Source: Lingula anatina (Eukaryota; Animalia; Brachiopoda). Taken from it: a DNA stretch of 64,000 nt. Position 1 is the first letter of the stretch; every line of letters starts with the position of its first letter. Below the pieces are notes generated by a model. The model saw only the letters and a list, made by a program, of their open reading frames with translations, had not been told where the DNA came from and ran no database searches. A program made the position numbers and the translations under genes. This document shows, piece after piece, positions 38,338 through 44,300 of the stretch. The stretch spans positions 17,422,001 through 17,486,000 of the forward strand of contig CM120641.1 in the NCBI GenBank assembly GCA_051362555.1. The letters run 5' to 3'.

Positions 38338-41300
38338 TTAAAATTCTCTCCTGTGGTACTGATCTGGGTCGTAGTATGAGGTGACAACAACTCTGTTGGC
38401 AAACTTTCGTCCCGTAAGGGCCTGCTGTGCCTTCTGACAGTCTATGACGGAGTTGAACTCCACAAATATCTGAAACAATTGAGAAAAATTGTTGCATATG
38501 GTTACTGAAACATGCTCATGAAATATAATAAACGTAAAAATATTTATTTTCAAAGTAGATATGTTATTTTTAAGACGAAAAACCACGTCTCATTTAATAT
38601 CAGTTACAGTACAACTATAATTTGTGATGTTAAAAATAGTGCTTTAAAACATTTGTATCAATGAAATGGGTCCACACCTTGCCACACCCGGGCACATCAA
38701 CACCTTTGATAGGGCGAGGTATTTCCATACTTCTAACAATACCATATTTGCCACATTCCTCGCGGACATCTTCCAAAATTTCTGCAAAATAAAAAGTGGC
38801 ATAAACTTGAAGCATTTTGTTCTATGACATAGTTTTTATTGGTAGAGAACAATTCAAGATGAGATACGTATTTTTTACACCAAAATCAAGCTGCAAGGTA
38901 TTAAAATGTGGATGTATTCTGAACTGTTTCACATCAATTATGTCACCCAAATAAACCTTTACCTCCTCTTACACACACAGTTCACTAGTGCCTCACCTTC
39001 ATACTCCTCTTCATCCTCCAGTTCTTCTGGGACCACCATGTTCATGAGGCAGAGCACTTCTGTGGGAGGTCCTGAGCCCTGGTTCAAGTTCAACCCTGGA
39101 ACCTGGATGGGTACCGGGGCCTGCTACAAAATATAAACAATTGAGCTCACTCCAATATTCACAATACCTTTAACCCATGAACTAGCAGTTCCAAAATCCA
39201 AAATAAAAACAATCCAAAAAAAAGTATTCAATGTTTCTCGTTCACTATGAAATGTCTTTTATTAAATGGAATGAGCATGGCATAAAATGTATGTTTTCCA
39301 AAACGATGCCAAAATATTGGACTATGAATGGACTTACGTTCTGAGCATTTTTGGCTCCTACACTTGCTCTCTGGACAATTAATTTCTTATCACCAAGTTG
39401 CATGCCATTTAAACCTGCACAGGCCTATAATAGAAAATGATCTTATAAGACACATGCAAACTCCATGGAACTAGAACTTTGCACCTTGTATCTAAATCAA
39501 GTGAAGACATGTAAAACAGTCATCAATGTATTTCTAAACAAGTTCTTAAACTTAAAAAATTAAGTTATTTGACTTGAAGGGAAAAAAACTTACATCTTAA
39601 TAGTGTTAAAAAAAGTAATATATTGGATTCTGTGTCTGCCTACCTGGTCAGTGATATTAGGATCCAGATATTCACAGAAAGCATATCCCTTTGAAAGTCC
39701 TGTAGCACTGTCTTTGACCAAGTTGAATGCTTTCAAGGGTCCAAAAGACATCAGAAGCTCCTTAACCTAAAAGTTGGTAATACTTGTCAACATCGAGTTA
39801 TATTCAAAAATGGACATAAGAGATTCCATACTGACTTCTTGTCAACAAAAAAGAATGTTCTTTCTTTTGCAATATCCCTAGAGGCCATCAATTTTCAGTC
39901 CCCCAGGCTAATTCACCCTCACAGAATATTTCTGTAACTTTTTTGCCAACCAATTTTTGGGAATAAAATTTGTGCATTTAACATCAGAGTCCTTGCAACA
40001 CTGAAGTGGAGTAAATGTTTCAAGTCAGTATGCCACCTCCTATATTACTTAACTTAAATCCACACACCACTATCACCCAATCCTCTCTGACACCTTTCAC
40101 ATTCCTCAGACTTTTCAAACTAGAAACAGGTTTTTGTTTTCGACAAACTTTTACCCCAGAAACATCAGACCTGGCGAAGATAATCACAGTAACAGTCAGA
40201 ATCACCCAGATCACCATTCAAAATCAACCAAACTTTCCACCTGGCTGCACAGGTGAGACAGACCATCTCCCACTCACATGAAATACTAGGTTCACTTGCC
40301 TGTCTCTTGTGGTGTGAGTTTACAACTGCTAAGGGTATAAGTTTAGATGGAGGAAAGGCCTCAACCTCTTCCCCTAGGCTAGGGAATTAAATGGGGAAGA
40401 AACAAGAATCTTGATGAGTAATGCCATTTCATAAAAAAAGATGTCCTTGCTGTACAACAGTACTACTTTTGAAAAATGTTCAATTTTCCTTTACTTCAGC
40501 ATTTGCTACTTGCTTATCAGATTACAAAATTGAAAATGTTTAATTTTGTTCAAAGTTTAATCTAGTTGTAATGCTAAGAGATTTTCAAAAACAAGCATTT
40601 CATGCTGTTAATTCCTGAAAAAAGACCCCTGAAATGCCTGTAAAAGACTTCCTGAAACAAAACCCTGAAAGGCTTTTAGAATTTTGAATGGAGATCTTTT
40701 CCATTTCTAGTGTGGTGGAAAAAAAGGGAATTTTTGCTCAAATAATTTTGAACTTTTTGACAACAAAATGACCCTGCCTTCAAATTTGAAAACTAAGAAC
40801 AAACTGCAATACTTTTCTAATGGGACTCCCTGTAACTTAAAACATTTCTGTGGTCTTCCACATGAAACTTTTCTGCTTTATGATATCCAGGACAAAATTG
40901 TCGCATTTTTTGTGCTGTGATACAGATATCTTGGTTCCTACTTTTGTCAGTCAGTCCATTGCCCTCATTCATCAAAACTTGTAAAGCATCTGTCATCAGT
41001 TCAATCTTTTCCTGTAAATCCTCTGACAAAAACAGCCTGTCATTTAATCTATGTCTGAAAGTGTTGGTTATCCAGGGCATTAAACAAACCCAAAAAGCTC
41101 ATTTCTTTTTTTACTTTTTCATGACTGTTCCTGAAAAAGTCTCTGAACAAAGTATCCTTGGAGAATAACAATGTTGTTTTTTTTTTGTGATCACTTTTCT
41201 GTCCTCCATATCTGCCACCTGTAATACCTGCAATCTTACCAATCTTGTGGCTGCTTTGAAGTTTGAACTATTCACCCATTCATCTCAATCAATCAACCTG

Positions 41301-44300
41301 CCAAACCTGGATACCAAGCAGCTAGCACATTGGCAAATATTTCATTAAAAATATGGCTTAAAATTGTCAAGTTTCCAACAGCCTGATTCAAAATGCATCA
41401 GGTGAGAATTTCTTTGTAATTTTTTTGGAAATCTTTGAACTATTTTAAATAAAAAAGCAAGATTGCTTTTAGCACTGAGAAAAATTGCCTTTTATAAAGT
41501 GTATGCTTTTACTGCTTGGTATAAATGAAGGAAATAAAAGAGCTGCAAAATAAGAACCTGAAAAAGACACCCTGCAAGACAACTGCAATGTGTCCCTTCA
41601 TGGTGACTCTGTTCTTTTCTTACTGGCTCTCTCTTCTTTTTTATTCCTAAACTGTGTAATATAACAGGACTTGCAAAAAAACATTGGACAGAAAGGCAGA
41701 TAAAATTTTAACTATTACAAAAAATACATCAATATAACTTGGAGATGACATAAATGAGGTAAAAGTATTTTAAAATCTTAATTCAAGTAACTGCCTTTCT
41801 CTCCCACATTGGCTTGTTTTTCAGATAACAACCTACCTGGTCTTCATTTAAATAGTTGGGTAGTCCTCCTATGAATATTTTGTGTGGGGAATCCTGTACA
41901 ACTGTTGATACAACACCTGAAAGAGCAGTAAATCATAAGTGCTATGTTCAAAACATTGAAACTGTAAAAGAACTTGTACTTTATCACAAAGACATCAAAA
42001 CCAATATTTCATTTAAAACATACTCCAAACATATTCACATCTCTCTCTCTCTCTCTCTCTTTTTTTTTTTTGCTGTTGAGGTAGGGCAAGAGGGATTGTA
42101 ATGAAACATTGTCCTTTTATGAGTATATCAGGAACATGTTTTACCTGGCACTGCCATTGAGGGCGTTTCTGACATTCCTGGTAATGGCTGGTAATCCCTG
42201 GGCCGCCTGATCTTCAGTGACTGGCCTTGAAAGTTTATCCCATCAAATGCCATTGCTTGTGTGGTCTCATCTACTGAACGGAACTAGAAATAACAAATTA
42301 ATACAGTATGATAACACACTGCAAAGGTAGTATGAACTATGCCATACATTAGTTAATAACAATATATAATTGTATGTCCCAAGTTAAAGCTAGTCAAAAT
42401 GGTCATACATTTTACATTGCAAAAAAATTTAAGAGCTCCTAGATTTAAAAGCAAATGCAAATGAAACTTACCAACCACTACTTTTAAACAGAGAAAGAGA
42501 AGACAATGCATTCTAAAAATGCAAAATAATAAACGTATATTAAATGGTAATAAGATTCTACCATGTGACCTTGAAAATCAACATTCCCTTTCATGCATCT
42601 GAGAATCCCACAAGAGCCAAATCTGTGTTATGAAATTTGTAGTCTTAGCTCCCCAGTTATGAACATGTTTGCAAGTTTATGATGTTTACAGAGGCCATTT
42701 CCATTGTCCCAGTAACATTATAGTCACAGAAGCAAGGGAAACAAGTTTCATGGTTCTAAATTCTTAATACAGCATTGGGAATTAACATACCTCTAAAAAT
42801 GCAAAATTCTTATCCAGGTTTATCTGAACTGCAATCACTGGACTGCCATCTGCTTGTGCCAAACCAGTCATCTTCATCTGATGGTTGAAGAAGTCCATCA
42901 TTGCTTCCTGATAATATTCAACAACATACAAACTGAAATGTTGTTTAACTTGTAATTTTCAAAAAAAGAAGAAAAAAAACTTACAAAAGGATAATCATAT
43001 TTGAAAAAGATACAAGATATTAATAGAAAGACAGATGAAGGGCACTACATATTACCAGCGACCTTTTAATCTTGACCCGTTCACAAAAAGTATGTTTGTT
43101 TTAAATTTCAAAATACATTCTCAGTAATAAGTGGCTTCTGTACCTCAGTGACACCAAATGGTATATTCCCAACATACAATCTTCTTGCTTGCCTACTTAT
43201 GGCACTGCCAGCAAATGGAACTGTAGTGTTCAGTGTCAAGGCTGTTGTGGGGACACTAATAGTCTGGGGAATCTGACCAGCGCCTAGAAAATCAAATAAT
43301 CAACAATGTTCTTCCACTAAAAAGAAAACACCCACATCCAGCAAGAGTATTAAAAAAAACAGGCCTAAAAATAGTGTATATTCTATACAGCTTGCTCTTT
43401 GCTTAGTGATGGGAATTTAAAAATAGCCATTTGGCAAATGATACTAAAAAACAATTAAAAAAAAAAAAAAGCATTTCCATTGTTTTTATTATTTTGAATC
43501 CCAATCAAGTCAAGTTTTTTCTTTTAATAATTCTATTGGGAAGCTAATTGTGATGCTTCTTCCCTAAATTGGTATATAAAATGTCAAGGGAGAGCATTTC
43601 AAATACACTCTGCCCTTTGACAGCTATAGAATTGCAATAGCTATTTACATAAATTAAGCTGATGTTAGATTTTCTGCAATTTTCCTCTTTTATTAATTAA
43701 CACTTTGTGTAAGACATAATTAAGATGAGTTCAACAGATAGTATCTTTCAGAGCTACCAGTAAGCGCATCCGTACACTGCATGGCCTTGTACTGCATTGG
43801 TGTTATATGCTCAAAGCCAGCTGGAGGTATATCCCAGTATTTATAAGGCTTTTTCTTTGGAGGTTTTGTATGCCTGCTGCTTCGATCTCTTGAACGACTG
43901 AAAAATTATATAACAATTAAGATAATTATAAAGATGAGAACGTGATGATTAGGGCCTTGAAAGAGTTTACAAAATGTACAAGTTAGAGAAAACACAGCGA
44001 AGGAAATAGCTCAAACATCCATGATGACCACTTCAAAATACTAACTTTCAAATGAAAACAATACCTTCTGGATTTTCTCTTCCTGTCTCTGTCTCTTGAC
44101 CTTGATCGGGACTTTCTTCTGTCCTTGCTTCTGGAGCGTTTCCTGTCCCTCTCACGAGATCTAGACCTGTGCCTTTCCCTTTCTTTTTCTGAATTATGTT
44201 GTGAACAAGACAGATTAAACAAAATTTTGAATTATTGTTTATGTCTACACTAAAATTTAAAACCAACTTTTCCCATCTTTTCGTTTTAAAGTCAAATGAT

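Follow-up and report, generated by a model that had tools for sequence, protein, structure and literature searches.

A conserved poison-exon module in intron 7 of the Lingula anatina U2AF2 gene

Exon 3 of uaf-1, the U2AF65 gene of Caenorhabditis elegans, is reportedly a stop-containing alternative exon with copies of the 3' splice site inside it, for which autoregulation was proposed (work attributed to Zorio et al. in 1997 and to MacMorris, Zorio and Blumenthal in 1999). To our knowledge, that nematode proposal of self-control by U2AF65 stood alone. Introns detained by means of decoy exons, such as SF3B1 intron 4, are said to use decoys consisting mainly of 5' splice-site arrays. Here we describe a module in intron 7 of U2AF2, the U2AF65 gene of the brachiopod Lingula anatina, which lies in a 64,000-nucleotide stretch of contig CM120641.1 (the window). 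The module, a stop-bearing (poison) cassette exon with a GC 5' splice site and, upstream of it, arrays of acceptor-like sites, is real, expressed and deeply conserved, and we consider it likely that intron 7 serves as a negative feedback device that senses U2AF through retention and the poison exon.

The Lingula module resembles uaf-1 exon 3 in that the same gene carries a stop-bearing alternative exon near the start of RRM2, with many copies of the 3' splice-site consensus and a proposal of autoregulation. In Lingula this exon enters 14 residues into RRM2 and has an in-frame stop at codon 6. There are, however, no 3' splice-site copies inside it; the copies are intronic, with at least 236 nt between them and the short exon that follows, and the GC donor, predicted hairpin and R-x-R-G-stop end described below are not known from the nematode exon. 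Because the copies lie outside the exon, we do not class the module as a member of the uaf-1 exon 3 type. In the nematode gene, exon 4 of uaf-1a ends inside RRM2, and uaf-1b holds only part of RRM2 and the UHM domain (PMC2762039), which indirectly supports the position given for the nematode exon. YYYNAG/R is stated to be a direct binding site of both U2AF subunits in C. elegans (PMC4484395).

The likeness to detained introns is that one intron is kept in polyadenylated RNA while its neighbours are removed, and that internal splice-site-like elements are rarely or never used; the repeated element is here a 3' splice-site word, in contrast to the 5' splice-site arrays mentioned above. Autoregulatory poison exons that couple alternative splicing to nonsense-mediated decay (NMD) are described for SRSF7, U2AF1 and RBM39, and a low-confidence human U2AF2 candidate is drawn at hg19 chr19:56,172,900-56,173,600 (PMC6547761). 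Like them, the Lingula exon is a stop-bearing cassette exon spliced in vivo in the splicing factor's own gene, with exon and splice sites conserved and a low steady-state inclusion. The human candidate presumably lies in an earlier intron than intron 7. In contrast to the Lingula case, no acceptor array, GC donor or conserved C-terminal peptide is noted for those exons in the accessible text of PMC6547761.

It is unsettled by what means U2AF65, which reads almost all 3' splice sites, controls its own level, and the human candidate exon is a prediction of low confidence (PMC6547761). Few non-coding elements can be recognised between spiralians and arthropods (PMC10735318). The module is a precise cis-element that is expressed and that a brachiopod has in common with nemertean-, annelid- and insect-like genes, and its array, hairpin, GC donor and stop are separable. 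We found no description of the module, GC donor or peptide in a literature search whose coverage excluded most subscription papers, and no mention of the module in the accessible text of PMC12385487, PMC13247117, PMC12709185, PMC12179342, PMC4937301 and PMC10735318 or its preprint, whose supplements could bear on novelty.

Intron 7 and its RNA forms

The gene is U2AF2 of Lingula anatina, its exon 4 peptide being 100% identical to P0001 (Lingula anatina U2AF 50 kDa subunit). RRM2 of the encoded U2AF65 begins at residue 243 and is split by intron 7 after its 14th residue. As a preliminary description made from the sequence had stated, intron 7 is the one long intron of the gene; the other ten measure roughly 0.15-0.5 kb, some of their boundaries being approximate (Table 1).

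Four of the nine same-label raw-read RNA-seq runs (X1, X4, X7 and X5) were aligned to 39300-42300. Their library types differ (X1 is PolyA and X7 oligo-dT; three of the four runs are stranded) and their tissues are unstated; relative to library size, X1 yielded roughly tenfold the reads of the others (1759 of 12.4 million in X1; 132-150 of 8.4-11.1 million in the rest). Intron 7 has read depth in 19, 20, 17 and 16 of 20 bins in the four runs, and in the three stranded runs its reads share the sense strand of the exon reads. Introns 6 and 8, to which the comparison is limited, show zero depth in 3 fully intronic bins in every run (one bin overlaps a skipped repeat). Intron 7 is thus retained in part in polyadenylated RNA, that of X1 and X7 included, while introns 6 and 8 are removed.

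Splice joints were listed when backed by 3 reads from 2 starts. Five passed this threshold, namely three canonical joints, exon 7 to 40378, and 40300 to exon 8. Given in the order X1, X4, X7 and X5, the exon 7-exon 8 joint has 367/6/16/13 reads, the exon 7-poison exon joint 12/4/5/1 (seen in all four runs) and the poison exon-exon 8 joint 6/0/1/6 (three of the four), with inclusion at about 2%, 25%, 16% and 21% on these small counts. The ratio of canonical exon 7-exon 8 joints to the mean of the flanking joints is 1.01, 0.30, 0.82 and 0.59 in the same order. The divergent run X7 lists 9 substitutions for 40095-40204 but none for 40281-40432. In X1, and partly in X7, intron coverage past the GC donor drops to near zero below about 40050 (39805-40050) with no listed joint, which could reflect a further donor, an intronic 3' end or an allelic mismatch.

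The poison exon reads PRGRG and then an in-frame TGA at codon 6, and the stop lies more than about 50 nt ahead of the downstream junction, at 61 nt from the exon end in Lingula and at 50-108 nt across the nine acceptor loci in register. A stop well before the end of its exon, with junctions downstream, is the usual geometry for NMD. Bases 40400-40393 of the pyrimidine tract are predicted to pair with exon bases 40374-40367; this hairpin is both the minimum-energy fold in Lingula and the consensus fold of the alignment, and a real structure over the tract and the start of the exon is plausible. A consensus-like GT donor (CAT/GTGAGT, 40272-40277) follows the GC donor at 22 nt without any listed joint, even though the GC site that is used looks weaker.

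The acceptors of U2AF2 itself (for example ctttcag, tttgcag and gtttcag) fit the word TTNCAG, which occurs in intron 7 at 17 sites on the sense strand and 2 on the antisense, against a mean of 5.0 in 2000 dinucleotide shuffles, none of which reached 17. The longer TTNCAGG is found 12 and 0 times (shuffle mean 1.15; 12 reached by none), and YYYCAGG, the motif of the preliminary description, 6 and 1 times (shuffle mean 1.29, p 0.002). Both arrays quoted there are present on the minus (sense) strand to within one T. Their TTNCAG words stand at 40670, 40657, 40643, 40634 and 40620 in the first array and at 41588, 41577, 41563 and 41548 in the second, the remainder being at 41233, 41224, 41136, 41060, 41017, 40835, 40809 and 39937 (all minus strand). 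Sixteen of the 17 lie upstream of the poison exon and none within it. Neither strand of the window has any other cluster as large as these two, with five and four words in 60 nt, and the remaining U2AF2 introns (2653 nt) hold 6 TTNCAG and no TTNCAGG. TTNCAG was picked after inspecting this intron, and other species therefore provide the independent test.

None of the 17 TTNCAG sites has a joint listed in the four runs. Use of the arrays as genuine acceptors is thus unsupported at the listing threshold, and 'decoy' fits them at that threshold of 3 reads. A satellite or transposon origin of intron 7 is unsupported: no further copy of the intron turned up in a blastn comparison with the window, and the only Tandem Repeats Finder match is weak (2.1 copies, 40610-40657), in agreement with the earlier view that the arrays are not a simple satellite. 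No Rfam family matched in 37000-46000.

The preliminary description had read the arrays as autoregulatory decoys. This reading is supported in part: the two outcomes that it predicted, retention specific to intron 7 and a poison exon, are both present in RNA, the array AGs have no listed junction, and the motif excess is conserved. The arrays lie upstream of the exon, not within it as reported for nematodes. The preliminary description had missed the core of the module, outside the region that it covered (40421-40294: the branch point with its pyrimidine tract, the acceptor and GC donor of the poison exon, and the stop at codon 6).

Table 1. Positions of U2AF2 features in the window
Feature	Position	Strand	Basis
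U2AF2 (U2AF65) coding span, 12 coding exons	38338..44541	-	exon translation
Exon 7, ends NEDQ, 14 residues into RRM2	41837..41916	-	RNA joints; junction residue 256/257
Intron 7, 2070 nt, partly retained in polyadenylated RNA	39767..41836	-	read depth
Acceptor-like array, 4 TTNCAG, no junction listed	41543..41588	-	motif count; RNA joints
7 scattered TTNCAG sites, no junction listed	40804..41233	-	motif count; RNA joints
Acceptor-like array, 5 TTNCAGG, ends 236 nt before poison acceptor, no junction listed	40615..40670	-	motif count; RNA joints
Branch-point-like TTACTCATC, predicted branch A 37 nt before poison acceptor	40413..40421	-	alignment with related loci
C-rich pyrimidine tract and TAG acceptor of poison exon	40379..40408	-	joint 40378/41837 in 4 of 4 runs; folds
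Poison cassette exon, 79 nt, PRGRG then TGA (40363-40361)	40300..40378	-	RNA joints; translation
GC 5' splice site, non-canonical, CAG/GCAAGT	40294..40299	-	533-nt joint to exon 8 in 3 of 4 runs; motif in related loci
Exon 8 (VKELL…)	39644..39766	-	RNA joints

Conservation of the module and of its C-terminal peptide

We then compared U2AF2 genes from metagenome contigs, using the best 80 of 349 matches to exon 8, of which 40 have a complete intron of >100 nt at the position of intron 7 (many are duplicates, and no nematode is among the loci). The poison acceptor, of the form YAG/CNNAGG behind a C-rich tract, was recognised in 11 loci: the window, L002, L004, L005, L011, L012, L013, L016, L047, L076 and the L045 group (L043/45/48). 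Two are cDNAs. In L013 a 68-nt insert that opens with the same ten bases as the Lingula exon is joined to exon 8, and L005 reads from the upstream intron through the poison exon into exons 8-12, which are spliced. In protein trees, L013 groups with nemerteans (support 0.99-1.0), while L045, L047 and L076 fall among arthropods. L002, L004, L005 and L011 sit loosely with annelids (0.82-0.89); the position of L012 is uncertain, and L016 has none.

The donor AG/GCAAGT lies 70-131 nt past the acceptor in all nine genomic loci, Lingula included; outside intron 7 it has a single occurrence in 209,635 nt. A matrix trained on the seven non-insect loci ranked the acceptors of L047 and L076 first (14.2 and 11.5), the best score among all 7006 background AGs being 5.5. 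Two further models, covariance model R1 and sequence model R2, found only their training sequences and duplicates of these. In eight of the nine genomic loci, TTNCAG is in excess in the 1 kb upstream of the acceptor (6-13 sense against 0-2 antisense, p 0.014 or less). Past the GC donor it has no strand bias, and in the other introns of these genes it stays at 0-3.6 per kb, one short sample excepted. With blastn, the acceptor region is the sole match of intron 7 between species and the array spacers are not alignable; the arrays are therefore kept as a density rather than as a sequence. As judged from sequence comparison, the layout is conserved between the brachiopod and the nemertean-, annelid- and insect-like loci.

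Other loci differ. Intron 7 is absent from genomic L015 and L060. A clade of 13 distinct introns (L017, L022, L025, L027, L032, L034, L035, L042, L044, L051, L052, L054 and L067) has no GC donor, no acceptor and no TTNCAG excess except a marginal one in L067 (p 0.027), and intron 7 is generally not the longest intron there. Within this clade, a block of about 20 nt in intron 7 is common to L044 (2410-2440), L052 (1075-1105) and L067 (4470-4500), and could be a replacement element or reflect simple kinship. An AT-rich long-branch clade (L021, L063, L064, L069 and L078), possibly rotifers, has a variant, palindromic intron 7 acceptor, TAG/ACTAG, with a GT donor. This acceptor is used in cDNA L078 and lies in a predicted hairpin (z -1.4 to -2.9); TTTYAG copies, 5-6 per intron, stand downstream of it (p 0.007 or less in three of four), an order that resembles the layout reported for the nematode exon. 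No relative was found in viral contigs, and genome collections gave 3 matches, 2 of them short.

The frame x-R-x-R-G-stop opens the poison exon in nine of the 11 acceptor loci. In these, codon 2 is always AGG, the Arg of codon 4 is written in four forms (AGA, CGA, CGT or CGC), codon 5 in two (GGG or GGT) and the stop at codon 6 in three (TGA, TAA or TAG), while codons 1 and 3 vary in residue. With L012 and L045 left out, the product of the synonymous fractions is roughly 0.0003 over 6 minimal changes, a pattern that constraint on the peptide could give, as could constraint at the RNA level. In the AT-rich clade, four of five loci end in R-A/V-F-G-stop.

The exon 7 motif is present in 202 stored proteins; 41 of them stop early, 35 by reading into the intron and 6 otherwise. 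The latter end in LRYRG (Cryptotermes, a termite), RRVRG (Cherax, a crayfish), LRERG, RG (Diaphorina) and, in two cases, differently (one a beetle); three further ends without RG come from a louse, a low-quality fish model and one more protein. A free C-terminal R-G or RxxG is thus found in nine of the 11 acceptor loci and in four of the six truncated database proteins that are not read-through, the latter proportion being biased because the searches were seeded with RG-ending queries. KLHDC3, a CRL2 receptor, targets mainly -RG and -KG ends (PMC7458402), and APPBP2, also of CRL2, prefers RxxG or RxxxG near the end (PMC11568203); x-R-x-R-G-stop matches both preferences. Conditional exposure of such Gly/C-degron ends clears truncated selenoproteins (PMC7458402), and only a fraction of consensus-bearing proteins are real substrates (PMC11568203). 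By this analogy the R-x-R-G end may work as a C-degron for truncated U2AF65; it would differ from the known C-degrons in being written by a poison exon and kept by selection in invertebrates. The conserved end suggests that poison exons can be selected to encode degrons, and other poison exons could be scanned for such ends.

Proposed feedback by free U2AF and its alternatives

In the feedback that we propose as the simplest account, and as the likely one, spare U2AF would load on the acceptor cluster and turn the RNA to unproductive forms. The UUNCAG(G) copies would bind free U2AF65/U2AF35 only after ordinary introns are saturated. The poison exon, weak by design in its C-rich tract, predicted hairpin and GC donor, would for that reason be recognised only at high local U2AF, and its recognition would either stall splicing, giving the retained form, or include the exon, giving an NMD target. 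The truncated product, with the RS domain, the U2AF35-binding region and RRM1, could act as a dominant negative, which the conserved R-x-R-G end, as a C-degron, would clear; this last step is the least certain and we put it forward tentatively. On this account intron 7 would bind U2AF, sense its dose and be detained in the nucleus, and the module would depend on U2AF, feed NMD and carry a working degron.

Dependence on some other factor (PUF60, RBM39, SF1 or general spliceosome load), the switch being real but not set by U2AF level, seems unlikely to us. Cross-regulation through poison exons is common; those of RBM39 and FUS, for instance, are included less when U2AF2 is knocked down (PMC13075997). 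In Lingula the unproductive share varies about tenfold across runs, as a tissue or stage signal might produce, and L047 retains the exon without an array. Set against these points is the enriched word itself: UUNCAG is the full acceptor word read by the U2AF heterodimer, it is strand-specific and upstream in eight of nine loci, and it stands in U2AF65's own gene. The arrayless L047 would also suit a functional poison exon with arrays as a neutral by-product and retention as the mark of a weak internal exon, as would the unalignable spacers and the failure of short AG-exclusion spacing as a general array feature (15 of 16 sites in Lingula, but 35 of 79 elsewhere against 52 of 114 in control introns). 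We nevertheless regard neutral arrays as very improbable, because independent, unalignable sequences give the same strand- and side-specific excess in eight of nine loci while nearly all other intron samples remain low in the word.

The peptide raises a different possibility, that the poison exon encodes a functional short protein (RS domain, U2AF35-binding region, RRM1 and R-x-R-G tail), serving for example as a U2AF35 sink or through a methylated RG tail. Codons 2, 4 and 5 and the stop are invariant at the protein level despite synonymous changes, and database gene models end in LRYRG, RRVRG, LRERG and RG, which speaks for such a protein. The placement of the stop, with several junctions downstream in the nine in-register loci, is the geometry of NMD, and L012, L045 and the beetle and louse models end differently; we think this explanation improbable.

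Several observations weigh against feedback by free U2AF through a conserved module. The read counts are small, and the runs vary in library type and tissue. The hairpin has modest support: 89.6% of cells pair and two of 11 pairs change on both sides, z-scores are -0.7 to -2.9, and chance pairing comes easily to a pyrimidine tract beside a purine-rich exon start. L012 and L045 lack R-G-stop from the first AG (L012 has G-K-R-G-stop only from an AG 5 nt further, and L045 reads on). Among the three insect acceptors, that of L045 did not come first with the held-out matrix, and covariance model R1 recovered none. L047 combines the acceptor and GC donor with just 1 sense and 1 antisense TTNCAG in 1 kb and so has no array; the bryozoan-like L023 group has the GC donor without a recognisable acceptor or array; and vertebrate-like L040 and short-intron L077 are without the module. 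The absence from the 13-intron clade belongs here too, and is a single loss event, not 13.

A broader history is conceivable, and we offer it with some doubt: a protostome U2AF thermostat in place since before the Cambrian, with a double lock. The array would gauge free U2AF and open a hairpin-guarded, GC-donor poison exon whose first five codons are selected to write an R-x-R-G degron, sending the mRNA to NMD and any dominant-negative U2AF65 fragment to a CRL2 ligase. The exon would then be one that selection at the protein level keeps as a degron-encoding poison exon, and nematode uaf-1 exon 3 would derive from the same ancestral switch.

Other observations

L081 (7210-8000), in a record titled as a bacterial metagenome-assembled genome, carries a divergent, animal-like spliceosomal U2AF2 gene, 62-75% identical to the animal rows compared. 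Its longest intron, 791 nt, is at the intron 7 position and has TTTYAG in excess (5 against 1, p 0.001) and a tract like that of L076 by eye; neither model nor matrix backed an acceptor, and there is no GC donor or RG end. We treat it only as a lead to a possible non-bilaterian form of the module. The cDNA-like contig L003 (709-1344) has an insert of about 630 nt at the position of intron 6, its other junctions being spliced.

Elsewhere in the window, a C3HC4 RING-finger reading frame (45274-46206, plus strand) is arranged head-to-head with U2AF2, whose start codon is about 0.7 kb away, and a rhodopsin-family G-protein-coupled receptor lies in a single frame at 62191-63390 (minus strand). A tandem repeat with a 145-nt unit is present in 5.2 copies at 50157-50892, and an inverted pair at 27534-27752 consists of TCTATTT in 4.3 copies and its complement, GAAAATA, in 4.3 copies, with about 160 nt between them.

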